Assembly (NCBI GenBank): GCA_938050265.1
Contig: CALLJT010000010.1
Span: 1-39,668, forward strand
Source: Candidatus Saccharimonadia bacterium
Lineage (GTDB): Bacteria; Patescibacteriota; Saccharimonadia; Saccharimonadales; SZUA-47
DNA: 39,668 nucleotides
Direction: 5' to 3'
Shown here one piece after another: positions 6,140 to 34,955 of the stretch (its first letter is position 1; every line of letters starts with the position of its first letter). Position numbers and translations under genes: made by a program. The notes beneath the pieces are model-generated. The model did not search any database and was not told the origin of the DNA. It worked only from the letters and a program-made list of their open reading frames with translations.

Positions 6140-6787
6140 CTAGTCGCGAGAGAGTCTGAGGCCAGTGTCAGATATAAGTTCGTTGAACTCTGGTACTTGT
6201 CGGATAAACAGACGGCGTACGGCGTTCATATTAGTGCCAGCCGTACCAGGAAACTCGTAGCATGACGTGAACCATCTACGCACATCGTCGCCGAGCTCTA
6301 ACACGTGCCGACGCCCATCAGGACAGACGCCTTTTTCTGCGAAATCGTCGTCAACTGACGTACCAAGTAATCGTGACGTAACGTTAAGCGCTTCGAGTGA
6401 TTCGATAAAGTTCGTATACGCTTCGTCGTTGTTACTATAGGTTTTTTCGTCGATAACAATCTGACCGTAGTTTGAATACACGCGCATCAATACGGTACCG
6501 CTCGAAACCTCAATCGTGTAACTTCGGTGATCCTGAGTCGCTACGATAGGGCCCTCTACGGTGTATCGCACTGTTCGTACGTTTAACAGTCCTTCTTCAC
6601 TGTCGCTATCGGCCACGCCACGGTTTTCAGATGTAGTCGTATCGTCTCCAGTGTTATCACTGCCAAACACTGTCCGGGCGAGCGAAGCGATACCCCATGT
6701 AATAAGGATAAACAGCAGTATACCGCCGATGATGAGTACGACCCATCGGATTTTAGAAACAACGTCAGTGTTAGCAATGAAGTCCAT
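6140..6787 (-). CDS. Membrane-anchored hypothetical protein
   Basis: 215 aa with a single N-terminal TM helix (VVLIIGGILLFILITWGIASL). No recognisable domain. Confidence 0.55.
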   Translation of the reverse strand: MDFIANTDVVSKIRWVVLIIGGILLFILITWGIASLARTVFGSDNTGDDTTTSENRGVADSDSEEGLLNVRTVRYTVEGPIVATQDHRSYTIEVSSGTVLMRVYSNYGQIVIDEKTYSNNDEAYTNFIESLEALNVTSRLLGTSVDDDFAEKGVCPDGRRHVLELGDDVRRWFTSCYEFPGTAGTNMNAVRRLFIRQVPEFNELISDTGLRLSRD

Positions 6788-6852: not shown

Positions 6853-7293
6853 CTATTCGCTTCTTTTCTTCAGGAAATTGACAACCACAGACTTGGCTGG
6901 CTCAAGCACGCCCGCGTCGTCGATATCGTCAAGCCCAACCCAGACTGCCTCCGAAACCTCAGAGTTCTGCAGTTCAAAATCTGTTTCTTCGATTGTACAT
7001 TCAAAAAACACACCGACAAACTGCATGCGCGTATCACCTCGCTCTGCACGCCACTCTCCAACGTCAATAATACCGTTCACCTTCGGTGTGACACCGATTT
7101 CCTCCTCAACTTCACGTGCCACACAATCATAGATCGATTCCCCAAGTTCAAGCATGCCACCTGGAGGGTGGCACTGCTTGTGCCCCGAGATGGTAGGATC
7201 AGACTGCCTCAACACAAGGACTTGGTTATTTTGATTAACGATTATCGCTTTTGCGGCAACGTGCAGGACATTAGGCTTCATACTCTTTGACAT
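6853..7293 (-). CDS. Nudix hydrolase
   Basis: Nudix box GGMLELGESIYDCVAREVEEEIGV. Confidence 0.85.
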   Translation of the reverse strand: MSKSMKPNVLHVAAKAIIVNQNNQVLVLRQSDPTISGHKQCHPPGGMLELGESIYDCVAREVEEEIGVTPKVNGIIDVGEWRAERGDTRMQFVGVFFECTIEETDFELQNSEVSEAVWVGLDDIDDAGVLEPAKSVVVNFLKKRSE

Positions 7294-7417
7294 CGTTTAT
7301 TTGTGGTGTTGTGACTCTAGGGTTACTGATACAAATCCAATGGCACTGAGCCACAGGATCTTTCCAGGTATTTATATTAGATGTGTCTAGTGTAGCACTA
7401 CACTGACATATAAATGC

Positions 7418-8587
7418 TCAGTCAAGCCTCGTTACGTGGCCCTGGTCTGCGTCGACTCGTACGTGGTCACCAGTCTTGAGGACTGTTGTGGCATTCCCTG
7501 TGCCAACTATGCACGGTACGCCAAGCTCTCGTGCAGTAATGGCTGCATGTGACAGTATTCCGCCCTGATCAGTTACGATGGCAGACGCTTTCCCCATGAG
7601 TCCGATATACGCTGGGGTTGTTACGGTGCATACTAGTACGTCGCCATGCCCGAACACATCCTCTTCGATCTTGTCTGGATCAACCGTGCGGACAGGTCCC
7701 TCTGCAGACCCAGGTGAACCAACGTGGCCAGATACCACCACCCCTTCCTCCTCAGATCCGTTCGCCGCCTGGTCAAGTACATTGCACTGCTCGTATAACG
7801 AACCAAGGATACGGTTATAGTCTTTGAAAAATACGCCGAACTCAGTCGAATAGGTAGTCTCAAAATATCCCATTAGATACTCACTGGCGAACACGGACCC
7901 GAGCTCATCTGCAAGTTGCTCGCGCAGGTCAGCATCCGAAACGCGTAAGAGTTCCATCAGATCTTCGATATGAGCTTTTGCATTAACGTCCGCTGGTGGT
8001 ACAACCCACTCCGAAAAATCATGGTGAAACGACACTGGTTGAGACACTTCATGAAATCCTTGCGTCAGCTGGTGGTGTCCACCGGCGACAATTTCGCCAA
8101 ACACACCGTTTTCTGTGACGACGAATATCGTAGACCGTTCGCACGTTTCATGTGGGACAAAATCTACTCTATATTTATCGGCGTCGACGCCCTGCTCTTC
8201 AAACCATTCAACAGCTTTACGGACGGTCTTGCCGCGCATGCGAAGTTTCTGGACTCCATCAGCAATAGGTATCAGACGTATCGCGCAAAGCTGATCACCG
8301 TGCTCGTCAATATACTGAACAAATTCACGTGTTTTGTCCCGAACGTCTACAGCGCTAAACTGAACTGGCTTGTCATACGGAAGTCCTGTGACGTCATTCA
8401 GCACTCTCAGTCGCTCGCGTTTGTCTTTGTCTTCTTCATGAAGCTCATCGGCCTTGTCGCTACCGATCTGTTCAAACCACTCGTGCAGACCCTGTTGCGT
8501 TATGTACAGCTTTGCCAGCTCATCATCCTTTGTTGCCACTACTCTTCCTCCTGTATTTAGTACTCCCTCGTGCCTCGTGTAGATCAT
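7418..8587 (-). CDS. PEP-utilising-enzyme mobile (phosphohistidine swivel) domain protein with an unassigned N-terminal domain
   Basis: The C-terminal ~90 aa (GDVLVCTVTTPAYIGLMGKASAIVTDQGGILSHAAITARELGVPCIVG) match the PpsA/PPDK swivel domain, including the catalytic His. Confidence 0.75.
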   Translation of the reverse strand: MIYTRHEGVLNTGGRVVATKDDELAKLYITQQGLHEWFEQIGSDKADELHEEDKDKRERLRVLNDVTGLPYDKPVQFSAVDVRDKTREFVQYIDEHGDQLCAIRLIPIADGVQKLRMRGKTVRKAVEWFEEQGVDADKYRVDFVPHETCERSTIFVVTENGVFGEIVAGGHHQLTQGFHEVSQPVSFHHDFSEWVVPPADVNAKAHIEDLMELLRVSDADLREQLADELGSVFASEYLMGYFETTYSTEFGVFFKDYNRILGSLYEQCNVLDQAANGSEEEGVVVSGHVGSPGSAEGPVRTVDPDKIEEDVFGHGDVLVCTVTTPAYIGLMGKASAIVTDQGGILSHAAITARELGVPCIVGTGNATTVLKTGDHVRVDADQGHVTRLD

Positions 8588-8635
8588 CTACACTCTACTT
8601 TCATGAAGCATCACTGTTTATAGTGTACACTTTCT

Positions 8636-10345
8636 ATGCGATCATTTGTAATATACAACTATATATTGTATAGTATGTACATGAGTGTCGCTTCTCCTGA
8701 GCTCCTTCAGTCGCCAGAGGCTTTCAGCACCGAAGAGTTGAACCTTTTCGGCTTTTTCGCAGTCGAGGGCTACGAGCCTCGTATTATTCAGGACGAGGAA
8801 GGGGCAAAAGACGGAGAACTGAGTGAATTTATCTTTGTGCCGAAAGACCTGTTTGAAGCAGATAACGGTGCCGAAGATATGCCGTTCAGTAACGGCTTCC
8901 CCTTTACTCAATCTGGAGACTATAGGTGCAAAAAACATGGCTCGTATACCCAGACCGTCCTTGAACTTGGCGGGAGTGTGCTTGTCATGCCGACCAAATC
9001 AGCAGCTGGAGGCGTCAACACAGTTGTAGAAGGCATCTTCAACCCCCTGGACTTTGAAGAGGAGATGCGCAATAGAGGCATCGAACACACTGCAACTCGT
9101 GAAGAAGCAAGAGACATATTCAAAGCACTATCGCAACGAAAAAACTCAAACACACTAGCCGTTCAAGGCAGTTCAGGTGGAGCTGCAGCAGCTGCGCGCT
9201 TCATACATCTTGTGCCAGACCTTGCTAAACAGCTGTTTGGCGAAGATGTCGATGTATCAAAAATCGTATGGTTCGAAAGTGACTTGTCCGGCTCCGCACG
9301 TGACACACGCGCTTCCGTAGGAGCACCGATCGGCATGAAGCTACGTGCTACTAACCCCCATATAACACAGGGCAAAGAAGCAACGAGCAGTGTACACTCA
9401 CTCGCAGACCACGTCGTAACAGCCCACACGACAGAAGATACCGCTCGTATCAACCAGGCTATTGCCCAGCACCGACACCCACGTCGTATAGAACAAGCAC
9501 CTAACTGGCCAGGATTGATTGGCCGGAAAGCGTCAAAATTAGGTACGATTGCAGTTGTCCCGAGCATAGACAACGTGCAAGACTGGGCAGAAATCCACTC
9601 CAACCGAGAACGCCGTGCGTCGCTCAACCATGCGGCCGCACTCCTGAACCAAGCAGAAGGCATATCCGTCAAATGGTTCGATGAAGGACCCATGCCAGCA
9701 CACCACCCTGACGTGCTTGACATGTTCATCGATGCAACTGCAGACGCATCCAGAGAAGACAGACAATGGATAGACGATGCTGCAAAACGCATAGGCTACA
9801 AGGGACCAAAAGACAGAAAAGCACTCTCTGATGTGTACGCTGCTCTTTCTGTGCAGCAACTCGACCCATCTGCACTAAAAGGCATCGCAACTATACTCGA
9901 CAAGAACCGTGCACATGTCCGTGAATGGCTCTCAGGTAACAACGCATCAGCACTCATGTACGCTGAACCCCAAGAACAATACCCGACAGTTGGCGAGGGC
10001 CACATGCTACCCCCAATACTCAGTAAAACCATGGGGATAATGGCTGATAGTCGGTACGCGGACAACAAGACGTGGTCAAAAATGATGCACGAGATAGCCA
10101 AGTGGTCCTTAGGCGGCAGACTACCCGATAACGATGCTTGGACAGGCATACTCGATCTCGACGAGATAGTGTTCAACATCAATACTGGCGGAAACACACG
10201 ACCGCGGGCTATCGCAATCGCTACCCCCTATGTCCACCCGGAAGATTACGCGCAGTATCCAAACGAGGATCCCGTTACAGCAGGAGATGTCCTAGCACTC
10301 GCACACGAAGGAGGACCCCTGCATGGAGTGCTCGCCAAACTATAA
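8636..10345 (+). CDS. Large hypothetical protein with a possible alpha/beta-hydrolase nucleophile elbow
   Basis: 569-aa ORF. It has a G-S-S-G-G motif (GxSxG) in the context LAVQGSSGGAAAAARF and no other recognisable domain. The start is uncertain; alternatives are the ATGs at M14 and M16. Confidence 0.55.
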   Translation: MRSFVIYNYILYSMYMSVASPELLQSPEAFSTEELNLFGFFAVEGYEPRIIQDEEGAKDGELSEFIFVPKDLFEADNGAEDMPFSNGFPFTQSGDYRCKKHGSYTQTVLELGGSVLVMPTKSAAGGVNTVVEGIFNPLDFEEEMRNRGIEHTATREEARDIFKALSQRKNSNTLAVQGSSGGAAAAARFIHLVPDLAKQLFGEDVDVSKIVWFESDLSGSARDTRASVGAPIGMKLRATNPHITQGKEATSSVHSLADHVVTAHTTEDTARINQAIAQHRHPRRIEQAPNWPGLIGRKASKLGTIAVVPSIDNVQDWAEIHSNRERRASLNHAAALLNQAEGISVKWFDEGPMPAHHPDVLDMFIDATADASREDRQWIDDAAKRIGYKGPKDRKALSDVYAALSVQQLDPSALKGIATILDKNRAHVREWLSGNNASALMYAEPQEQYPTVGEGHMLPPILSKTMGIMADSRYADNKTWSKMMHEIAKWSLGGRLPDNDAWTGILDLDEIVFNINTGGNTRPRAIAIATPYVHPEDYAQYPNEDPVTAGDVLALAHEGGPLHGVLAKL

Positions 10346-10960: not shown

Positions 10961-10989
10961 ATTATAGCGTCATGACGTTATAGCGTCAA
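10961..10989 (-). promoter_or_regulatory. Canonical promoter TTGACG-N17-TATAAT, 6 nt upstream of the antitoxin ATG (leaderless-type), with repeats in the spacer
   Basis: -35 at 10984-10989 and -10 at 10961-10966. The region carries the direct repeat GACGCTATAA x2. The promoter overlaps the stop codon of the upstream Nudix gene. Confidence 0.5.
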
Positions 10990-11497
10990 TTTCTAAGTCA
11001 CCTCCAGCCGTTTCTAGATACTTTTGCATTGTACAGATGAATCCTGGAGTGTATTTCTTATCCCAGTGCGCGTTAATGTCCTGCACGATCTGCTCAACAC
11101 TCATGCGCCGCAACTCCTCAACCTCGTCATTTGGGCTAAACACCCAATCCCTTGGTGCGATGCAGGTATAGATACCGAAATGATGGTTTCCTGCATCAAT
11201 GGGTGACGCGTAGCCAGTGGCGACTTCTTGCAGGTCCGCCTCCATATCAAGTTCTTCTTTAAGCTCACGCACTGCAGCCTCTCGGTACGTCTCGCCAGGG
11301 TCAACATGCCCGCCAGCTGCGTGGTCCAGTAACCCACCAGACTTTTTATGTACCTGCACATACAGCTCGCCACTTACATCGAATACATATATTGCTGCGG
11401 CTCGGTGATGTAAGCGTTCAGTATGTATAACTTCCTTACTCGCCATCCGACCCGTGGATACATCGTGCTCGTCAACTACTTCGTACAGTTCAGGCAT
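10970..11497 (-). CDS. Nudix hydrolase
   Basis: Nudix box GGHVDPGETYREAAVRELKEELDM. Confidence 0.85.
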   Translation of the reverse strand: MPELYEVVDEHDVSTGRMASKEVIHTERLHHRAAAIYVFDVSGELYVQVHKKSGGLLDHAAGGHVDPGETYREAAVRELKEELDMEADLQEVATGYASPIDAGNHHFGIYTCIAPRDWVFSPNDEVEELRRMSVEQIVQDINAHWDKKYTPGFICTMQKYLETAGGDLEIDAITS

Positions 11498-11843: not shown

Positions 11844-12236
11844 TCATAAGGATGCGTCCACTACGTCGTCCAGGTCCATGTCGAGTAACACGCTATCCGC
11901 CGTAAGAAATAGCGCGCCCTCGCTCAAAGCCTGAGACAAGAGCATACGATCAAAAGGATCATGCCGAGCAAGACTTTGCAGACCCTGCAGATGCTCCGAA
12001 TGTTTCGCTTCGTAGCAAAGCTCAACGAGTCCGTGGCGTACCAGTACGTCGGCTGTTAAGGGCGCTGGCTTCAGCTTTTTGAGCATAACCTTCATCGATA
12101 TCTCAGTCAGCGAGATTGGTGAAAAATACACAACTGAGCTGCGAATGCTCTCTTGAGCTCGTTTCCCGAGATTGTGGTGCTTTCGCTCATCCATCAACCA
12201 TAGTAATGCGTTGGTGTCCAGTAGTACCGCCCGCAC
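11844..12236 (-). CDS. vapC: PIN-domain toxin (VapC-like)
   Basis: VLLDTNALLWL motif. A GTG start overlaps the antitoxin TAG (TAGTG). The track ORF extends to a TTG at 12251. Confidence 0.8.
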   Translation of the reverse strand: MRAVLLDTNALLWLMDERKHHNLGKRAQESIRSSVVYFSPISLTEISMKVMLKKLKPAPLTADVLVRHGLVELCYEAKHSEHLQGLQSLARHDPFDRMLLSQALSEGALFLTADSVLLDMDLDDVVDASL

Positions 12237-12490
12237 TATTCTTGGTCCCAATCCTTCCCATAAAACAGTTCCTGGATCTCTGGGTCTGATCCAACAAAAA
12301 GAACGTCGTCCAGATGCCCTATCTCCTTTGACATCGATCCAAACTGTACAATTGTATCCTTGGGTATGGGTGCAATTATGGCGTCAGGCTTGCCATACGC
12401 GCCGACATAGATAGTCTCGCCTTTTTTTGCTCGTTTAACGAGCTTAGAGAGGTTCGTCTTTGCTTCATATATCGATAAAGTATCACTCAT
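12236..12490 (-). CDS. Phd/YefM-family antitoxin
   Basis: MSDTLSIYEAKTNLSKLVKRAKKGETIYV... Confidence 0.8.
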   Translation of the reverse strand: MSDTLSIYEAKTNLSKLVKRAKKGETIYVGAYGKPDAIIAPIPKDTIVQFGSMSKEIGHLDDVLFVGSDPEIQELFYGKDWDQE

Positions 12491-13357: not shown

Positions 13358-13750
13358 TCAAGGAGCCTCTACGATTTTTGATAGTTTTTTAGCGAGTGTT
13401 TTATCAAACGACAGTAGCTTTGCGTCCTGCCTAGCAGCACTGTGTGCAAGGTACACATCAGCGAAAGATACCTTTGGTGACAGCTCGTAGTCAGTAAGCA
13501 CGCGGCCAATAAATGCTGCGTTACACGAAATATTACTATGTGTGATAACTTTCCGAATAAACCGAGCGACATCAATGTTGTCAAACTCATACACCTTGCT
13601 CAAAACCCAAGAAATTTCAATGACTGTAGCATCCGCTACATGTAGTTTGTTTTGAGAGTTATTAAGCACATCTTCTACTCGTTGTGCTTGGTCGGCAACA
13701 TCGAACAACAACCAACGAACCAAACAGTTTGTATCAAGAGCGTATGTCAT
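13358..13750 (-). CDS. vapC: PIN-domain toxin (VapC-like)
   Basis: MTYALDTNCLVRWLL... and conserved acidic residues. ATG at 13750 overlaps vapB by 17 nt. Confidence 0.8.
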   Translation of the reverse strand: MTYALDTNCLVRWLLFDVADQAQRVEDVLNNSQNKLHVADATVIEISWVLSKVYEFDNIDVARFIRKVITHSNISCNAAFIGRVLTDYELSPKVSFADVYLAHSAARQDAKLLSFDKTLAKKLSKIVEAP

Positions 13751-14021
13751 GCTTTTTCTTGTATTCTTCCGCCCGTACTTTGTTGGCCTTATCCATAATC
13801 TGTTCATCAGGCATCCCCAAGAGGCCTTTTGACTTCAAGTGTGCGTGCGCTTTTTTGCGAAGTACCATAAGATCTTCCTCGTAGGCGTCTGGCTTGACCG
13901 TAATGGTTTGGCCCCTCCGGTCCACCACAAGTCTATCACCAGTCTTAATATTCATGGAACGTCTTACTGATACGGGCAGTGTGATAGTTCCTTTGGATGT
14001 AACAGTGGTAGTGAATGCCAT
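13734..14021 (-). CDS. vapB: AbrB/MazE/SpoVT-type antitoxin (VapB-like)
   Basis: VTSKGTITLPVSVRRSMNIKTGDRLVV swapped-hairpin motif. Confidence 0.85.
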   Translation of the reverse strand: MAFTTTVTSKGTITLPVSVRRSMNIKTGDRLVVDRRGQTITVKPDAYEEDLMVLRKKAHAHLKSKGLLGMPDEQIMDKANKVRAEEYKKKHDIRS

Positions 14022-16854: not shown

Positions 16855-17355
16855 ATGGACACACCTACACACGATAGTGAAACTCCGGCACACGGACAGC
16901 AAGTAATTACGGCATGTGCCTTTATACACGCCGATGTGGACGGAGTTCGTAAAGTGTTTCTACCGAAGCGCGCAGCGACAAAAAAATTTCTCCCAGGTAT
17001 ATTTGAACTTCCAGGTGGCCACATAGATTATGGCGAAGAAATGGCCACCGGCTTGAAACGTGAAATTAAAGAAGAATTCAATAAAAACATCACGGTAGGT
17101 GATCCGTTTTTTGTATTTACATATACCAATCCAGTTAAGGGGTCACACTCGATCGAAGTCGTGTATTTTGCACAGTTCAGCGACAACACGGACAACATCA
17201 TACTCGATCCATCAGACCACTCAGAATACGTGTGGGTAAGCGAAGATGAGCTTGCGACCGTCTATACGGACAATCAACAAGTCGACGATATTGAATTTAC
17301 CGCAGTCCGCAAAGGTTTTGCCTTGCTAGGTGGTGCACCCCTCGTGGCGCAGTAG
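16855..17355 (+). CDS. Nudix hydrolase (MutT-like)
   Basis: Nudix box GGHIDYGEEMATGLKREIKEEFN. AAGGAG SD at 16841-16846. Confidence 0.85.
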   Translation: MDTPTHDSETPAHGQQVITACAFIHADVDGVRKVFLPKRAATKKFLPGIFELPGGHIDYGEEMATGLKREIKEEFNKNITVGDPFFVFTYTNPVKGSHSIEVVYFAQFSDNTDNIILDPSDHSEYVWVSEDELATVYTDNQQVDDIEFTAVRKGFALLGGAPLVAQ

Positions 17356-17529: not shown

Positions 17530-19113
17530 ATGACTCGACTAATAGCAAACAAAGTACTACTTGGGACAGCGCTTTTCGCGCTCGCTGGACTACCGGGCAT
17601 CGGTACAACGGCAGTGTCGGCGATGCCCATGAACAAGCACGCATCATCGCACACTCGACCAGAAATGTCACTCGGGCATTTTCAAGTAACCATACATAAC
17701 GTCAGTACGGACCAGCCGCTCGCGCCGGGTATATATGTTGTACATGACGACCGAGCATCACTCAACTTCGAGGGTCAACTCTCCCCTGCTGCGTTTGAAT
17801 CGCTGGCAGAAGTAGGCAGCCCAACGGCTGCTGCAGAGCTTGTAGCAACACTACCTGGTGTGCATGATGTTATCGTAATGGACGCACCAGTCACGCCTGG
17901 CGAAAGCACCACCCTCAATATACAAGCACCAGTTGGCAGTCTCCTCTCTGGGCTACAAATGCCAGTCGCAACAAACGACGGGCTTGCGCTTGTAGATTCT
18001 GTAAAGCTTACGGGTAGATCACAGACTATCGATGCAGCTAACTACGACAACGGTACTGAAGAAAACAGTCCACTTGGCTCTGGATTTGACGGTGGTCAAC
18101 CTGACCCAAGCCGTGGAGCCGAAAACATCGACAACGGTGTTGCAACTGACCCGCAGGAACCGTTTGCTGTTCACCCACAGCTGACAGACACCGTACTGCG
18201 TGTGAGTGTAGACAAAATGAAAAAAGACAAAGCACCGAAATCTCACAGCTACGACGTCACAATCTATAACACGAGCACGGACCAGCCGCTCGCGCCTGGT
18301 ATATATGTTGTACATGACGACCGAGCATCACTCAACTTCGAGGGTCAACTCTCCCCTGCTGCGTTTGAATCGCTGGCAGAAGTAGGCAGCCCTGCCGCTG
18401 CAGCTGAACTCGTACAGTCACTCCCTGGTGTCATGAGCGTACACGTTATGGATGCACCGATACTACCAGGTGAAATGACACAGTTCGAGATCATGGCGCC
18501 ACATGGCTACTTATTCTCTGGGTTACAGATGCCAGTCGCAACAAACGACGGACTCGCACTGATTGATTCGATCACGCTGCAAGGAGAGGCCGTAGAAATG
18601 TATGCCGAAAACTACGACAACGGTACTGAAGAAAACAGTCCACTTGGCTCTGGATTCGACGGTGGTCAACCTGACCCAAGCCGGGGCGCTGAAAACATCG
18701 ACAACGGTGTTGCAACTGACCCACAGGAAGTAGTCGCACCGCATCCGCAGCTCACTACACCAGTGTTGAAAGCCTCTGTTGAGCCCGTCCGCGGTCCACT
18801 ATCGTGCGAACTACACGGCTACAACCGCAATAATATGTCAGAAACGTTTTCGAGCGGCCAAGACATTGCACTACACACCAACGTCGGGCTGAAGGTGCAT
18901 GCACCAGACGCAGTGAGTTACGATTGGTATGTTGATTTCAACGGCGACGACATTGAGAATACTCGCCAGCACGAAGTAGCAGAAGATACATGGAGCTATA
19001 CCGTATGGAGCCATGGAACGTTCACCTACACAGTGAAGGTTACTGATGTACACGGCGAAACAGCTACGTGTTCATTCGACGTACACGTGCCATACGCACA
19101 CGATCGCCAGTAA
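17530..19113 (+). CDS. Secreted protein with two tandem spondin-N-like domains and a C-terminal PKD/Ig-like domain
   Basis: Signal peptide MTRLIANKVLLGTALFALAGLPGIGTTAVSA. A ~190-aa module is repeated (FESLAEVGSP...MPVATNDGLAL...YDNGTEENSPLGSGFDGGQPDP). The C-terminus reads YTVKVTDVHGETATCSFDV. SD is AAAGGAG. Confidence 0.8.
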   Translation: MTRLIANKVLLGTALFALAGLPGIGTTAVSAMPMNKHASSHTRPEMSLGHFQVTIHNVSTDQPLAPGIYVVHDDRASLNFEGQLSPAAFESLAEVGSPTAAAELVATLPGVHDVIVMDAPVTPGESTTLNIQAPVGSLLSGLQMPVATNDGLALVDSVKLTGRSQTIDAANYDNGTEENSPLGSGFDGGQPDPSRGAENIDNGVATDPQEPFAVHPQLTDTVLRVSVDKMKKDKAPKSHSYDVTIYNTSTDQPLAPGIYVVHDDRASLNFEGQLSPAAFESLAEVGSPAAAAELVQSLPGVMSVHVMDAPILPGEMTQFEIMAPHGYLFSGLQMPVATNDGLALIDSITLQGEAVEMYAENYDNGTEENSPLGSGFDGGQPDPSRGAENIDNGVATDPQEVVAPHPQLTTPVLKASVEPVRGPLSCELHGYNRNNMSETFSSGQDIALHTNVGLKVHAPDAVSYDWYVDFNGDDIENTRQHEVAEDTWSYTVWSHGTFTYTVKVTDVHGETATCSFDVHVPYAHDRQ

Positions 19114-23232: not shown

Positions 23233-23946
23233 ATGCAACCAGACCTACAAAATGGCGAAGAAAACCCCTACGGCTTTATATTCGACCAGAATTCTCAGAC
23301 GACACCCGGCACCAACACGGCGGCTGTCGGAGCAGACAAAACCAAGCAGTACCTCCTGTTTGGCGTATTCGCACTCGCTATCTTAGCAATTGCAGGTATT
23401 GCAGCAACCATATTCCTGAAGCCCACCCCACCGTCAGCACCTGAGCTCGTCCGTGTACGTGCAATTCAAAACGAACTTATCCGCGTCCGCGAAATCGGCA
23501 ACAAAAACCTTGGACAATACGATCTACGAAAAGATGTAGACACTATCAATCTTGTCCTGCAAACCGACACTGCAACAATTAGCGGCCTCATCAGAACCAG
23601 AGGTGTCGTCACCCTGCCTGGCGAACTATCACAGTTCAAAAACTCAACCTACGATACAAGTCTGCAAAACGCGCTCAGTAACGACACACATGACACGGTC
23701 TACCGCGATATCGTGGACCAGCTGGCTGGACAGTACTATGAATCAGTCAAAGCGGCCGAAAACCGTGCGGTCAGCAGAACCGAACAGGCCCAACTAGCAG
23801 CAGTACGTAGCAACATCGAAATCACGTTCGACTTCGAAGACCCGTCTGAGAGTACCGAGTCTACCGAGCGACAAGACACAGCGACAGAACCAAGCGAACC
23901 TGACGCAGACACCGCCGATGAACCTATCCCAAGCCTGTTTAATTAA
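23233..23946 (+). CDS. Membrane-anchored hypothetical protein
   Basis: 237 aa with one TM helix (YLLFGVFALAILAIAGIAATIFL) and an acidic C-terminal tail. Confidence 0.55.
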   Translation: MQPDLQNGEENPYGFIFDQNSQTTPGTNTAAVGADKTKQYLLFGVFALAILAIAGIAATIFLKPTPPSAPELVRVRAIQNELIRVREIGNKNLGQYDLRKDVDTINLVLQTDTATISGLIRTRGVVTLPGELSQFKNSTYDTSLQNALSNDTHDTVYRDIVDQLAGQYYESVKAAENRAVSRTEQAQLAAVRSNIEITFDFEDPSESTESTERQDTATEPSEPDADTADEPIPSLFN

Positions 23947-28545: not shown

Positions 28546-28923
28546 CTATGCGTTTTTAGGAACTTCGAAATCAATACGCGTTGAGTAGTTCTGCGCGAAC
28601 GTCTGGTCGATGGTTAAGATTTTGCTGCAGCCACTACGGAGGGCTACGGCCAGTTGCAAGGCGTCTTCGAATTCGTTATCGGCAAGCAACTCCAATGCTT
28701 GTACGTAATCATCTGCCGTAACATCGAGGAGCTGGAACTCGCTCAGACTGTCATGGATCTGTTCTGCCGTGTACTTCTCTTTTCTACCAAAGTAGTGCGC
28801 GAGATGAACGCTCAGCATCGAAATGGCGGCCTGCTCTCCTCGCAGTGCTTTGGCCACAGCGTGTTTACGGATACGATCTGGTAACAGCAGCTCCAACACA
28901 ATGTTTGCGTCAGCGAACACCAT
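28546..28923 (-). CDS. PIN-domain toxin (VapC-like)
   Basis: MVFADANIVLELLL... The ATG at 28923 overlaps the upstream antitoxin by 14 nt. Confidence 0.72.
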   Translation of the reverse strand: MVFADANIVLELLLPDRIRKHAVAKALRGEQAAISMLSVHLAHYFGRKEKYTAEQIHDSLSEFQLLDVTADDYVQALELLADNEFEDALQLAVALRSGCSKILTIDQTFAQNYSTRIDFEVPKNA

Positions 28924-29209
28924 ACTTTTCACCAACGCTTTCTGCGTACAGCTCCTTGATAGATTTGTTGGGATCTAATACGGCCTTGCCTGCTCGACTT
29001 TCGCTCAATACAAGTGCTTTGTCTATGGCACGATGTATAGCTTCTGCTGACCCAGGTTCAGAACTAGAAAGCTTGGGCGTGCTTGAATTAATCGTAACCA
29101 GTGGTTTGGATCGGTGCAACACAGTAACCTGGTGGCCGTCGCCTAAACTCCGCAGAAACGGCACCAGGTTTTTACGAATTTCAGATGTACTGACAATATC
29201 TAAGTTCAT
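28910..29209 (-). CDS. Phd/YefM-like antitoxin
   Basis: MNLDIVSTSEIRKNLVPFLRSL...VTVLHRSKPLVTI. TAGTAT lies 6 nt upstream of this ATG, with TTGAGT 17 nt further up. Confidence 0.62.
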   Translation of the reverse strand: MNLDIVSTSEIRKNLVPFLRSLGDGHQVTVLHRSKPLVTINSSTPKLSSSEPGSAEAIHRAIDKALVLSESRAGKAVLDPNKSIKELYAESVGEKYGVR

Positions 29210-31065: not shown

Positions 31066-31407
31066 TCACAGGTCTAATACTTTCCTGAGGCCATCATCTA
31101 TCTGTCGCTGTGCCTTCTGTGATAGCTGCCCAACGTATTCCTTGAGAAATCGTCTATCAATCGTTATTAACTGTGACACATTCGCGACTGAATCTTTGGG
31201 TAGCCCTTCTTCTTTTTTGTGTAACATTACGTTGCCTGGAGACATAGCCATCTTGAGATTTGAAGTGATGCCTATCGCTAATACTGTTCTTATTTTGGTT
31301 TCGTTAAAATCGTCAGACTGAACGACGAGTATTGGTCGTCTATAGCCAGGTTCTGAGCCAGTTGGTTCTGGTAAATCTACCCACCATATCGCTCCTCTAA
31401 CTACCAT
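31066..31407 (-). CDS. mazF: MazF/PemK-family endoribonuclease toxin
   Basis: RGAIWWVDLPEPTGSEPGYRRPILVVQSDDFN. Overlaps the mazE stop (ATGGTAG). Confidence 0.88.
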   Translation of the reverse strand: MVVRGAIWWVDLPEPTGSEPGYRRPILVVQSDDFNETKIRTVLAIGITSNLKMAMSPGNVMLHKKEEGLPKDSVANVSQLITIDRRFLKEYVGQLSQKAQRQIDDGLRKVLDL

Positions 31408-31643
31408 TCCCCGTGTCCGTTGTTAATGGAATCGTACTGCATTTTGTAGAGCGGTGGATCCAACGAAGAATCTTCTTGCGAATACAGTTCATTCAGTTGT
31501 CTTTTAGTAGCTTCACCCTCGATACGCTCTATATACTCTTCTAGAGCCCGTGCGTAAAACTTACTTCTGGAGCCGCCCATCTTTTTCGCGTGGTGCTCCG
31601 CCTTACTAAAAGTCGAGTCTGGGATAGATACTGCTATTTTCAT
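31401..31643 (-). CDS. mazE: Ribbon-helix-helix (CopG/MazE-type) antitoxin
   Basis: MKIAVSIPDSTFSKAEHHAKKMGGSRSKFYARALEEYI. ATG at 31643 is preferred over the GTG at 31649. Confidence 0.8.
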   Translation of the reverse strand: MKIAVSIPDSTFSKAEHHAKKMGGSRSKFYARALEEYIERIEGEATKRQLNELYSQEDSSLDPPLYKMQYDSINNGHGEW

Positions 31644-31649
31644 ACCCAC

Positions 31650-31678
31650 AGTATAACAAAAAGTATTACGCTATCCAA
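31650..31678 (-). promoter_or_regulatory. Putative mazEF promoter TTGGAT-N17-TATACT, 6 nt from the ATG (leaderless-type)
   Basis: -10 at 31650-31655 and -35 at 31673-31678. The heptad array starts 2 nt further upstream. Confidence 0.45.
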
Positions 31679-31679
31679 A

Positions 31680-31749
31680 CGTCTCACGTCTCACGTCTCA
31701 CGTCTCACGTCTCACGTCTCACGTCTCACGTCTCACGTCTCACGTCTCA
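31680..31749. repeat. Perfect tandem heptanucleotide array (CGTCTCA)x10
   Basis: Counted directly: ten uninterrupted identical units. They are followed by the palindrome CTCAC-TA-GTGAG, a partial inverted unit. Confidence 0.97.
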
Positions 31750-31809
31750 CTAGTGAGTATGCCCTACTTATCCCCATTCTGAAACAAAATACTATATACT
31801 CTTAGCTAT

Positions 31810-32535
31810 ATGGGAGACCCAACGAAACTCATTGTACAAGCTGTGCGCCTCTGGATGGCACGCTTTGCTCGGTGGCTCAACGCCGTAACCAACGGCGCCG
31901 TGTTGCCCGTGCATATCACTATACTGTCGCTTCTCGGCCACTTCAGCGTCGTGTGGGCACTCTGGGACTCTCGCCCAGTGCTCGCTGCGGGACTACTGAC
32001 TGGGTTTGGCCTCCTTGATGCACTCGACGGTGCACTCGCGAGAGAACAAGGAACAGCGAGCAAACTTGGCATGCTGTTTGACGCAGTTACCGACCGACTC
32101 AAAGAAACGCTGGTCTACGTCGGCCTGATCGTGTACGCAGGCAATCATGTATCCGAAGTCCGTCCCTGGGTAATCGTCGCGGTTGCTGGTACGTCCTTGC
32201 TTGTCAGTTATGTAAAAGCCAAAAGCGAAATGGCTGTCGCCGACTCTCATGCGGACCGCCAGAAACTCAACCAGATGTTTTCCATCGGCCTCGCACGGTA
32301 TGAAATCCGCACGACAATCGTAGTCGTTGGGCTCCTCATGCCCGTGCTGCTCGCACCGCTCCTGCACTTCACGATCGCTATCAACCTCATGACTGCAGCG
32401 CTGCGGTTTCTCCAAGCGGCAGAGGTCCTACAAAAAGAGAACTCAGAAGAGTCATCCGACTCTCAAAACACAACAAAAACGCTCCCACAACGCACAGCCA
32501 CGTCCAGGAAACAAAAGAAAGACAAGAAAAAATGA
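31810..32535 (+). CDS. CDP-alcohol phosphatidyltransferase
   Basis: Exact signature D-x2-DG-x2-AR-x8-G-x3-D-x3-D (DALDGALAREQGTASKLGMLFDAVTD). Multi-TM protein with a Lys-rich tail. Confidence 0.88.
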   Translation: MGDPTKLIVQAVRLWMARFARWLNAVTNGAVLPVHITILSLLGHFSVVWALWDSRPVLAAGLLTGFGLLDALDGALAREQGTASKLGMLFDAVTDRLKETLVYVGLIVYAGNHVSEVRPWVIVAVAGTSLLVSYVKAKSEMAVADSHADRQKLNQMFSIGLARYEIRTTIVVVGLLMPVLLAPLLHFTIAINLMTAALRFLQAAEVLQKENSEESSDSQNTTKTLPQRTATSRKQKKDKKK

Positions 32536-33086
32536 GCGACCTTCTCCCTGCACTTTGGTTTTTCTTACCGGGCGCATACGCCAACATGGCACCTATATTT
32601 GCTAACAACATACCACTGCTCAAACCGTACACATACCCGCTCGACCATCACAAATCATACAGAGGCGTCCGGATATTTGGTGATCACAAAACCTACCGCG
32701 GTGTTATCTCAGGCACGATTTTCGGGGCGCTTACTGGGCTGGTGCAATACCTGCTCGCATCGAATTTTGACGCGCTGTCGGACATTGCAAGCCTCACTGA
32801 TTACACGTCTCTCTCCGTCGTCGCACTTGGCGCTGCTATCGGGTTTGGTAGCCTCATGGGAGACGCCGTTAAAAGCTTCTTCAAACGACAAGCCCGTGTC
32901 GCTCCTGGTAAAAACTGGATACCGTTCGACCAGATAGATTTCGTGGTTGGCGGACTGATCGCTAGCCTACCGTTTGTCAGGCTAGAAATATCGACATACC
33001 TTATCATCCTGGCCGCCGCCGGACTATTGCACCCGGCCATCAACGTCCTTGGTTGGATGCTGCACCTCAAAGATAAACCACTCTAG
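32532..33086 (+). CDS. CDP-archaeol synthase-like (CarS / DUF46 family) cytidylyltransferase
   Basis: LPGAYANMAPIF...GDHKTYRGVISG...GDAVKSFFKRQ...DQIDFVVGG...LKDKPL parallels the archaeal CarS sequence as I recall it. ATGA start/stop overlap with the upstream gene. Confidence 0.75.
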   Translation: MSDLLPALWFFLPGAYANMAPIFANNIPLLKPYTYPLDHHKSYRGVRIFGDHKTYRGVISGTIFGALTGLVQYLLASNFDALSDIASLTDYTSLSVVALGAAIGFGSLMGDAVKSFFKRQARVAPGKNWIPFDQIDFVVGGLIASLPFVRLEISTYLIILAAAGLLHPAINVLGWMLHLKDKPL

Positions 33087-34284: not shown

Positions 34285-34478
34285 AGTTTTTTACCTTTCC
34301 CCTTTACGACTAGTGCCGGAACAACTAGTGCATTACCTGTATGATACACCTCGGATTAGAAATTAGCAAACTCGAACCTAGAGTGCCAATTTTACAACAT
34401 TGTCTGTCTGTTTTGCAGGGGCTATTGCCCTCCTTGGGTTTTGTTTTCTGCGACTACTGTGTCACAGTTTACGCTACA

Positions 34479-34955
34479 ATGACAATAACCATCATAACTG
34501 TCGGTGCACAGTCCAAACAGGAGTACGCTGCACTGTGCCAGTCATACCTAAAGCGCCTACCCCGACACATACGTGTGACCTGGCAGCTCATTAAGCACGG
34601 CCCAGGGGACCGTATAAAAAGCGTACGCACCGAATCTGAGAATATACTGAAATCAATCCCCGCACAGGCAACTGTCATACTTCTAGACGAGCGGGGTCGC
34701 ACGCTCACATCACCCGAGCTATCTTCTGCCATGTTCAGTCGTCACGCTGCTGGCACTGCGGCACCTGGAGGGCACGATGTCGTGTTCATCATAGGAGGCG
34801 CCTACGGTGTAGACCGTGCCGTACAGAACCGCGCAGACATCGTCGTATCTCTCGGAAAGCTCGTATATCCACATCACATTGTGCGACTCATACTTTGTGA
34901 GCAAATCTATAGATCCTACACCATACACACCAATCACCCATACCACCATAGCTAG
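34479..34955 (+). CDS. rlmH: 23S rRNA (pseudouridine1915-N3)-methyltransferase (SPOUT)
   Basis: MTITIITVGAQSK...FIIGGAYGV...SLGKLVYPHHIVRLILCEQIYRSYTI..NHPYH. The start was moved to the ATG at 34479. Confidence 0.88.
   Translation: MTITIITVGAQSKQEYAALCQSYLKRLPRHIRVTWQLIKHGPGDRIKSVRTESENILKSIPAQATVILLDERGRTLTSPELSSAMFSRHAAGTAAPGGHDVVFIIGGAYGVDRAVQNRADIVVSLGKLVYPHHIVRLILCEQIYRSYTIHTNHPYHHS

Follow-up and report, generated by a model that had tools for sequence, protein, structure and literature searches.

Patescibacteria are incapable of de novo lipid synthesis; its absence has been stated for Saccharibacteria (PMC12592800, PMC3812714, PMC8406219) and, according to a 2024 perspective, no mechanism of lipid uptake or breakdown has been identified for Patescibacteria (PMC11665869). 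What role, in such an organism, is played by two adjacent genes that encode a CDP-alcohol phosphatidyltransferase (open reading frame (ORF) A) and a cytidylyltransferase of the CarS family (ORF B)? The pair is found in a 39,668-nucleotide stretch of DNA from Candidatus Saccharimonadia bacterium (assembly GCA_938050265.1, contig CALLJT010000010.1; hereinafter, the window). We favor, with moderate confidence, the interpretation that the two genes belong to a Patescibacteria-wide operon that attaches head groups to a scavenged lipid of the bacterial type, converting phosphatidic acid (PA) to CDP-diacylglycerol (CDP-DAG) and then to phosphatidylinositol phosphate (PIP) and, in some cases, phosphatidylinositol (PI).

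Both ORFs are encoded on the forward strand, at positions 31810-32535 (ORF A, 241 aa, PF01066, with an intact catalytic motif) and 32532-33086 (ORF B, 184 aa, PF01864, an integral-membrane protein of the Patescibacteria clade of the CarS family). As the initial annotation had it, they overlap in an ATGA (32532-32535) that combines the TGA stop codon of A with the ATG start codon of B, which is directly readable in the sequence. By this operon criterion, A and B are predicted to be translationally coupled, and in the 82 sequences of the locus comparison described below, neighboring cluster genes often share 1, 4 or 8 nt.

The resemblance of ORF B to CarS, the archaeal CDP-archaeol synthase, extends along the entire protein, as first proposed: the alignment with the PF01864 profile covers positions 5-173 of 175 (96.7 bits, E 2.1e-27, cut-off 22), and the motifs originally singled out in this ORF coincide with family-invariant positions, all of which are retained. 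The sole meaningful sequence match in the PDB is the CarS structure 5GUF from A. pernix (ApCarS; E 2.8e-10). The same structure is the sole significant Foldseek match in the PDB (E 2.6e-5, probability 1.0, TM 0.68/0.78) for an AlphaFold (AF2) model of ORF B built with 29 homologues (pLDDT 93.2, pTM 0.89), so that the predicted fold is the five-helix CarS fold of 5GUF. The polar core shared with the archaeal proteins, taken as columns whose conservation reaches at least 85% in each of two sets (35 sequences from Patescibacteria and 18 from archaea), includes N18, D38, R47, K53, T54, G110, D111, K118, R119, D133, Q134, H167 and K180; the placement of these residues in the CTP/metal cavity follows the published structure description (PMC9385802). 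From the invariant residues, the archaeal polar core and the predicted fold, we infer that ORF B is catalytically competent.

CarS and CdsA, the bacterial CDP-DAG synthase (PF01148; T. maritima structure 4Q2E), belong to the same CTP-transferase superfamily (PMC9385802), and the reaction proposed here for ORF B, PA + CTP to CDP-DAG, is that of CdsA. However, ORF B is about 100 aa shorter than CdsA and matches it in a core segment alone, with residues 53-123 aligned to positions 170-230 of the 264 in the PF01148 profile (28.6 bits), whereas the score against the E. coli-type CdsA model NF008635 is 16.5 bits (cut-off 385). No CdsA structure was among the significant Foldseek matches of the ORF B model. 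The CdsA signature S-x-[LIVMF]-K-R-x4-K-D-...-H-G-G-x-D-R-x-D is missing from ORF B, and HGG-x-DR-x-D occurs nowhere in the window. A regular-expression search of 1.3 Mb of related loci together with the window also yielded no CdsA signature, a weak hint that CdsA is missing, because all these loci surround one and the same gene.

For ORF A, the label of a canonical CDP-alcohol phosphatidyltransferase is upheld by the PF01066 search (50.3 bits, E 4.4e-13, cut-off 22) and by the complete motif D-x2-DG-x2-AR-x8-G-x3-D-x3-D (D70, D73, G74, A77, R78, G87, D91, D95). Among 31 members of the A family, the motif residues D70-D95 are invariant or nearly so, and the invariant residues of the family include D70, D73, G74, G87, D91, D95, R96, S133, R167 and R199. 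The best NCBIfam models for ORF A are archaetidylinositol phosphate (AIP) synthase (AIPS, 75.1 bits) and PIP synthase (PIPS, 56.2 bits); its relatives score 86-138 bits on these models, still under the cut-offs, and the family always places AIPS and PIPS at the top, followed by BT1523-type (Bacteroides-type) PIPS and the di-inositol-phosphate phosphate synthase (DIPPS). The sequence of ORF A matches PgsA1, the PIPS of M. tuberculosis (6H53), with an E value of 1e-11, and a profile made from the 31 sequences matches 6H53 over the full length (E 2.3e-28); the next matches are other PIPS, AF2299 and the fusion of inositol-phosphate cytidylyltransferase (IPCT) with DIPPS, and PssA and CPT reach just 26-43 bits.

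In PgsA1, S132, R155 and R195 hold a sulfate or phosphate ion, and K135 and R94 are close by (PMC6506517). In the alignment of the A-family profile with 6H53, these residues correspond to S133, R167, R199, K136 and R96 of ORF A, and S-Y-V-K-A-K of the A family is aligned with S-Y-I-K-A-R of PgsA1. Of these five residues of ORF A, K136 is present in the window protein and represents the family consensus, and the other four are invariant throughout the A family. Thus, ORF A shares the catalytic motif and the phosphate-site residues with PIPS (PgsA1 and the R. salmoninarum enzyme, 5D91) and AIPS. It differs from them in several respects: the first arginine of the mycobacterial ER-x-ER is replaced by F, Y or L in Saccharibacteria, although it is kept in the Levyibacteriota-type proteins, and ORF A carries an extra lysine-rich, hydrophilic C-terminal tail (about residues 205-241). 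At the level of sequence, ORF A resembles the inositol-phosphate-accepting (PIPS/AIPS-like) group of class I CDP-alcohol phosphatidyltransferases; its acceptor would probably be a phosphorylated alcohol and is likely to be inositol phosphate.

Our comparison of the loci around B covered 82 sequences: the window, two further assemblies from the same organism and 80 genome loci. Just three families are broadly conserved around B: A (67 loci), B itself and a third family, X (58 loci), a PHP-domain metal-dependent phosphoesterase of roughly 217 aa (PF02811 and PF13263) for which no specific NCBIfam equivalog scored above its cut-off. In 50 of the 82 sequences, the order is A-X-B, all three genes being on the same strand and most adjacent pairs overlapping. 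About 14, including the window, have the layout A-B, and in the remaining sequences, some of which end at contig boundaries, X-B, B alone or other layouts were observed. A second member of the CDP-alcohol phosphatidyltransferase family (CDP-OH_P_transf), more generic and more PgsA/ClsA-like, is encoded in convergent orientation just downstream of B in several loci of the X-B and B-only types.

The window lacks X: a tblastn search of its 39.7 kb with 51 PHP proteins produced nothing better than E 0.02. All of the closest relatives (loci L003-L012) possess the PHP gene, the junction in the window is cleanly without it, and the window can therefore be regarded as a derived two-gene form. The flanking genes of the window (argS, a flavodoxin-fold gene and a HAD gene) are also found in the nearest relatives. 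The possibility that the lysine-rich tail of ORF A is a remnant of the PHP gene was considered and rejected given that close relatives that possess the PHP gene also align into the tail.

The link between A and B is further documented by gene fusions. Proteins of 330-353 aa that combine CDP-OH_P_transf with a CarS-like domain form three clusters at 50% identity; one of these fusions (locus L083, 8001-8993) is encoded in the closed 1.08-Mb genome of a Ca. Nomurabacteria member (CP060223.1), between gyrB and secE-nusG-rplK, and recurs in an independent Logan assembly; the other cases are P0443 and P0479. The gene adjacency, the overlapping junctions and the fusions support the conclusion that A and B act together, as well as the two-step logic put forward in the initial annotation, namely, activation of a lipid by CTP followed by head-group transfer.

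A precedent for such fusion exists in the IPCT/DIPPS proteins of hyperthermophiles (4MND), in which a cytidylyltransferase is fused to an inositol-phosphate-accepting transferase, with a separate phosphatase that completes the product. There, however, a soluble enzyme activates inositol phosphate and the product is soluble, whereas here the membrane CarS-type enzyme should activate the lipid. A scenario in which A would use a soluble CDP-alcohol donor (CDP-inositol or CDP-glycerol), either to pass the alcohol phosphate on to diacylglycerol or to make a solute of the di-inositol-phosphate type, with B unrelated or co-regulated, appears highly improbable. Proteins of the A family do score 41-61 bits on the IPCT/DIPPS model, and the annotation table for Southlakia (discussed below) lists CDP-OH_P_transf together with a glycerol-3-phosphate cytidylyltransferase and contains no PF01864 or PF01148. 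Nevertheless, A neither carries a soluble inositol-phosphate cytidylyltransferase domain nor has one as a conserved neighbor, A and B are both integral-membrane proteins, and their fusions and tight coupling argue that it is B that supplies the donor for A.

The less common neighbors of the cluster provide clues to its substrates. In four loci of the Levyibacteriota type, a lipid kinase (DAGK_cat and YegS_C domains) is encoded between X and B, and in about 10 Saccharimonadales loci, a kinase gene lies beside or near the cluster, either upstream of A on the same strand, or divergently upstream, or downstream of B; altogether, 14 loci have a YegS/DgkB-type kinase within or next to the cluster. 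Furthermore, in locus L070, a single 562-aa ORF (6979-8670, reverse strand) beside the A-X-B cluster encodes a fusion of CDP-OH_P_transf with DAGK_cat. Inositol-3-phosphate synthase (PF01658; TIGR03450, 471 bits) adjoins the cluster in L045 (7578-8684), L046 (1050-2132) and L081 (6720-7838), and in L038 (5188-6282), it is encoded about 0.8 kb downstream of B, such that the four cases represent two lineages. The L045 synthase belongs with more than 120 sequence clusters at 81-88% identity, some on contigs of about 1 Mb, and among the listed matches that carry an organism name, 6 of 7 come from Ca. Saccharimonadales, an order in which the enzyme is common and highly conserved. No geranylgeranylglyceryl phosphate synthase (GGGPS) or digeranylgeranylglyceryl phosphate synthase (DGGGPS) was detected among the annotated conserved neighbor families. 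Judging by the kinase neighbors, the L070 fusion and this lack of GGGPS and DGGGPS, the lipid substrate is probably diacyl. The phosphoesterase gene that separates A from B in 50 loci and the neighboring synthase genes speak for a phosphorylated acceptor of A, likely inositol phosphate. The initial annotation left the substrate unspecified, as diacylglycerol phosphate, an ether lipid or polyprenyl phosphate; because of the kinase and synthase neighbors and the PIPS/AIPS character of A, the choice can be narrowed toward a diacyl lipid and inositol phosphate.

The same neighbors bear on the proposal that the lipid is a polyprenyl phosphate, or that B is a CTP-dependent kinase similar to dolichol kinase, and that the pathway yields a precursor of a polyprenyl-linked or envelope polymer. 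CTP-dependent polyprenol kinases are members of the CTP-transferase superfamily, peptidoglycan synthesis in Patescibacteria requires a lipid carrier, and genes of the MraY, FtsW and MurE types are present in some of the flanks. These cell-wall genes are non-conserved neighbors, however, and it is glycerophospholipid chemistry that is indicated by the kinases, by the inositol-phosphate synthase and by the resemblance of A to PIPS. Considering also that B retains the CarS core residues and that its partner, to which it is coupled or fused, depends on a CDP-activated donor, we regard this proposal as improbable.

Could the pair instead act in an archaeal manner, with B as CDP-archaeol synthase and A as AIP synthase, on isoprenoid ether (or mixed) lipids made by, or obtained from, archaea, so that the bacterium would acquire polar lipids of the archaeal type? 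The assignment of B to PF01864 and its predicted ApCarS-like fold would fit, as would the archaeal AIP synthase as the best NCBIfam model for A, and judging by the titles of published papers, some Patescibacteria parasitize methanogenic archaea. The archaeal-type label originally given to ORF B stands as far as the family is concerned, but the phylogeny separates the Patescibacteria from the archaea: in a neighbor-joining tree of the 35 Patescibacteria and 18 archaeal CarS sequences, in which a few distances are saturated, the two groups split cleanly (99/100 bootstrap), with a mean identity of 0.31 between the groups compared to 0.43-0.47 within them. Relative to the archaeal proteins (ApCarS; A. 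fulgidus AF1740), with which it shares PF01864, a length of 170-185 aa, the fold and the polar core, the bacterial B family contains two insertions, one of about 7 aa after the first transmembrane helix and one of about 15 aa between helices. It also displays clade-specific residues close to the membrane-facing parts, namely, R56 in place of E, Q120 in place of R, W129-x-P-F in place of A-P-L-L, and W9/F10/F11. In the neighborhoods of carS in three archaeal genomes, there is no CDP-OH_P_transf gene next to carS, unlike the coupling of B to a PIPS-like gene, and inheritance of the A-B pairing from archaea was accordingly rejected for these three neighborhoods. Together with the diacylglycerol-type kinases among the neighbors of B, which suggest a diacyl substrate, with the lack of GGGPS and DGGGPS among the annotated neighbor families, and with the growth of cultivated Saccharibacteria on Actinomycetia hosts, these observations make the archaeal-type pathway quite unlikely.

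Under the inositol-phospholipid interpretation that we favor, the system would work as follows. In those relatives that encode the YegS/DgkB-type lipid kinase, this enzyme would phosphorylate diacylglycerol, yielding PA. B would then condense CTP with PA or a similar lipid to form a CDP-lipid, most likely CDP-DAG, performing the job of CdsA. From this CDP-lipid, A would pass the phosphatidyl group on to a phosphorylated alcohol. The most likely acceptor is myo-inositol phosphate, the product of inositol-3-phosphate synthase, in which case PIP would result. Finally, in most relatives but not in the window, the PHP phosphoesterase would remove the phosphate from PIP to produce PI. As for the organism represented by the window, the phosphatase, the kinase and the synthase may be encoded elsewhere in the genome, or else the pathway may begin with scavenged PA and stop at PIP. 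The data document the protein families, the fold, the catalytic residues, the coupling and conservation of the operon genes and their fusions; the substrates and products of every step we infer.

Several observations weigh against this interpretation. Both proteins fall short of the respective NCBIfam equivalog cut-offs: ORF A scores far below those for AIPS (180 bits) and PIPS (170 bits), and ORF B scores 126.1 bits against the CarS equivalog NF003114 (CDP-2,3-bis-(O-geranylgeranyl)-sn-glycerol synthase), with a cut-off of 148, which excludes strict orthology. The characterized archaeal CarS prefers an isoprenoid substrate, and an E. coli cdsA mutant was not rescued by the A. fulgidus enzyme, AfCarS (PMC9385802); given this discrimination against PA and the failed complementation, activity on PA cannot be predicted from the fold alone. 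Genes for a PHP phosphatase, a lipid kinase and an inositol-phosphate synthase are all missing from the 39.7 kb of the window, and hence the wider pathway is borrowed from the relatives. Across the comparison, the inositol-phosphate synthase adjoins the cluster or lies near it in just 4 of the 82 sequences. Lastly, the phosphate pocket of A (S133, R167, R199) would suit glycerol-3-phosphate, too.

The last two points are also arguments for a glycerol-3-phosphate head group. Under this alternative, A would act as a phosphatidylglycerol phosphate (PGP) synthase, the PHP protein of the relatives would dephosphorylate PGP, and the pathway would lead to phosphatidylglycerol (PG) and then cardiolipin, the usual anionic lipids of bacteria; whether the intermediate is PGP or PIP, a phosphatase in the operon would be expected. 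Because the pocket and the phosphatase fit PG as well, this is the strongest of the competing explanations, one that we consider a realistic, if minority, possibility. It is at odds with the model scores, as ORF A reaches 18.9 bits or less on the PgsA models, and in its relatives, PgsA scores are absent or much weaker than those on the inositol models, with a maximum of 42.9 bits (in one Levyibacteriota member) against 138. All the top structural-sequence matches of A (PIPS, AF2299, DIPPS) are inositol-phosphate-accepting enzymes, the linkage of the cluster to inositol-phosphate synthase also speaks against PG, and in several loci, the second, PgsA/ClsA-like paralog downstream of B could fill the PG-making role.

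How widespread is the system? With one genome taken per GTDB species, relatives of B were identified in at least 508 genomes of Patescibacteria; among the best 80 of these, almost all are Saccharibacteria, along with some Dojkabacteria/WS6 and Levyibacteriota. Hundreds of homologues of the same length show 41-57% identity to ORF B, and those with names are labeled 'CDP-archaeol synthase [Candidatus Saccharimonadales bacterium]' or carry the Joint Genome Institute (JGI) equivalent. A search of 1.84 billion cluster representatives with a B profile gave 2,866 matches, including archaeal CarS, of which 445 had E <= 1e-30. Thus, the gene pair is widespread in the group rather than peculiar to the genome at hand. 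With at least 508 species-level genomes that carry the family, which is already automatically annotated as CDP-archaeol synthase, rarity of the pair is not supported, and the novelty initially attributed to it was overstated. The metagenome-assembled loci L056 and L068, labeled Gammaproteobacteria, and L080, labeled Bacillota, contain the same CarS-like gene and cluster genes, and are probably mislabeled or mis-binned Patescibacteria contigs.

One oral Saccharibacterium appears to lack the module. The annotation and insertion tables for Southlakia epibionticum ML1 (10.1101/2023.05.02.539146), which may be truncated, include no entries for PF01864, PF01148 or PF00781 (DAGK_cat), another weak hint that a canonical CdsA is absent. 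According to these tables, Southlakia keeps one CDP-OH_P_transf gene, SEML1_0297, with strongly negative insertion scores in transposon-insertion sequencing (Tn-seq), and also has a glycerol-3-phosphate cytidylyltransferase and a synthase of the phospholipase D (PLD) type. This pattern suggests that the CarS module was lost in the oral lineage of Southlakia and that other routes exist.

Between ORF A and a divergent antitoxin gene, there is an intergenic region (31650-31809) that contains a perfect array of 10.3 copies of the heptad ACGTCTC (31679-31750; 100% identity by Tandem Repeats Finder). As noted originally, the array lies directly upstream of the operon, with 59 nt between its end and the ATG of A. 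Locus L002, an independent assembly of the same organism, begins within the array. A consensus scan of the forward strand upstream of A identified no sigma-70-like site; the operon promoter or leader is presumably located in 31650-31809, and slippage of the heptads could change the promoter or leader spacing.

Beyond A and B, a Pfam scan of all sizeable ORFs in the window revealed no families involved in phospholipid, fatty-acid or isoprenoid synthesis, in agreement with the initial annotation, which had reported no fatty-acid or isoprenoid synthesis genes there. The housekeeping genes are those for S20, holA, fpg, polA, rpoD, dnaG, argS, gdh, mscL, rlmH and tag. The longest ORF for RlmH (SPOUT methyltransferase) occupies 34341-34955 on the forward strand; because its domain begins only at residue 47, translation probably starts downstream of position 34341. 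Other identified genes encode HAD hydrolases, three NUDIX hydrolases within 11 kb (6853-7293; 10970-11497, reverse strand; 16855-17355, forward strand), three PIN-domain proteins (11844-12251, 13358-13807 and 28546-28935, reverse strand) and, directly upstream of the operon, a MazF/PemK toxin with a small overlapping upstream partner (31066-31649, reverse strand). With the MazF/PemK gene and the three PIN genes, the contig is dense in genes of the toxin-antitoxin type. Six sizeable ORFs have no Pfam match. Five ORFs of 215-662 aa without a match at E <= 0.001 are 58-2046 and 6140-6787 on the reverse strand and 8636-10345, 17530-19113 and 23233-23946 on the forward strand.

The outline of the pathway has already been proposed, and its enzymes are bacterial versions of known kinds. 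For the rhizosphere Saccharibacterium 'T. rhizospherense' (Starr et al. 2018, PMC6031116), which lacks fatty-acid synthesis, the available passages describe a route from 1,2-diacyl-sn-glycerol-3-phosphate through CDP-DAG to PI and phosphatidylinositol mannosides (PIMs). The salvage logic of that route is the same as that of the pathway favored here, although it was derived from annotation labels ('putative phosphatidate cytidylyltransferase'), and the same passages mention neither a CarS-type enzyme nor the A-PHP-B operon, the kinase, the link to inositol-phosphate synthase or the fusions. In the searchable literature, we likewise found no description of the CarS-type identity, the PHP operon, the linkage to the kinase and inositol-phosphate synthase, or the fusions. 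A search for publications that connect CarS or CDP-archaeol synthase with Saccharibacteria or the Candidate Phyla Radiation (CPR) returned nothing relevant beyond co-cited terms, and one on PIP phosphatases nothing usable; a paper on the Fibrobacteres-Chlorobi-Bacteroidetes (FCB) group reports CarS as absent, and Coleman et al. 2019 do not treat CarS.

Collectively, the conserved, often fused set of genes for a lipid kinase, a CarS-type cytidylyltransferase, a PIPS-like transferase, a PHP phosphatase and, sometimes, inositol-phosphate synthase would constitute a defined lipid salvage and remodeling route for the lipid-auxotrophic Patescibacteria, and the copy in the window is an ordinary, slightly reduced member of this system. 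The PHP-family protein is nominated as a PIP or PGP phosphatase. The family that has been seen as the archaeal counterpart of CdsA would have a large bacterial branch, probably acting on bacterial lipids, which bears on the lipid divide between archaea and bacteria. A bolder and distinctly tentative extension holds that Saccharibacteria and other Patescibacteria lack CdsA altogether, with the CarS-type enzyme, an old, vertically inherited bacterial branch, as their sole CDP-DAG synthase, and that these bacteria convert host-derived diacylglycerol or PA into inositol phospholipids of their own by means of the PIPS-like transferase and the PHP phosphatase, the latter being a candidate new class of PIP phosphatases. 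If this is the case, the split between CarS and CdsA would depart from the archaea-bacteria lipid divide, and the gene set would provide a concrete entry point into the way Patescibacteria build their membranes.

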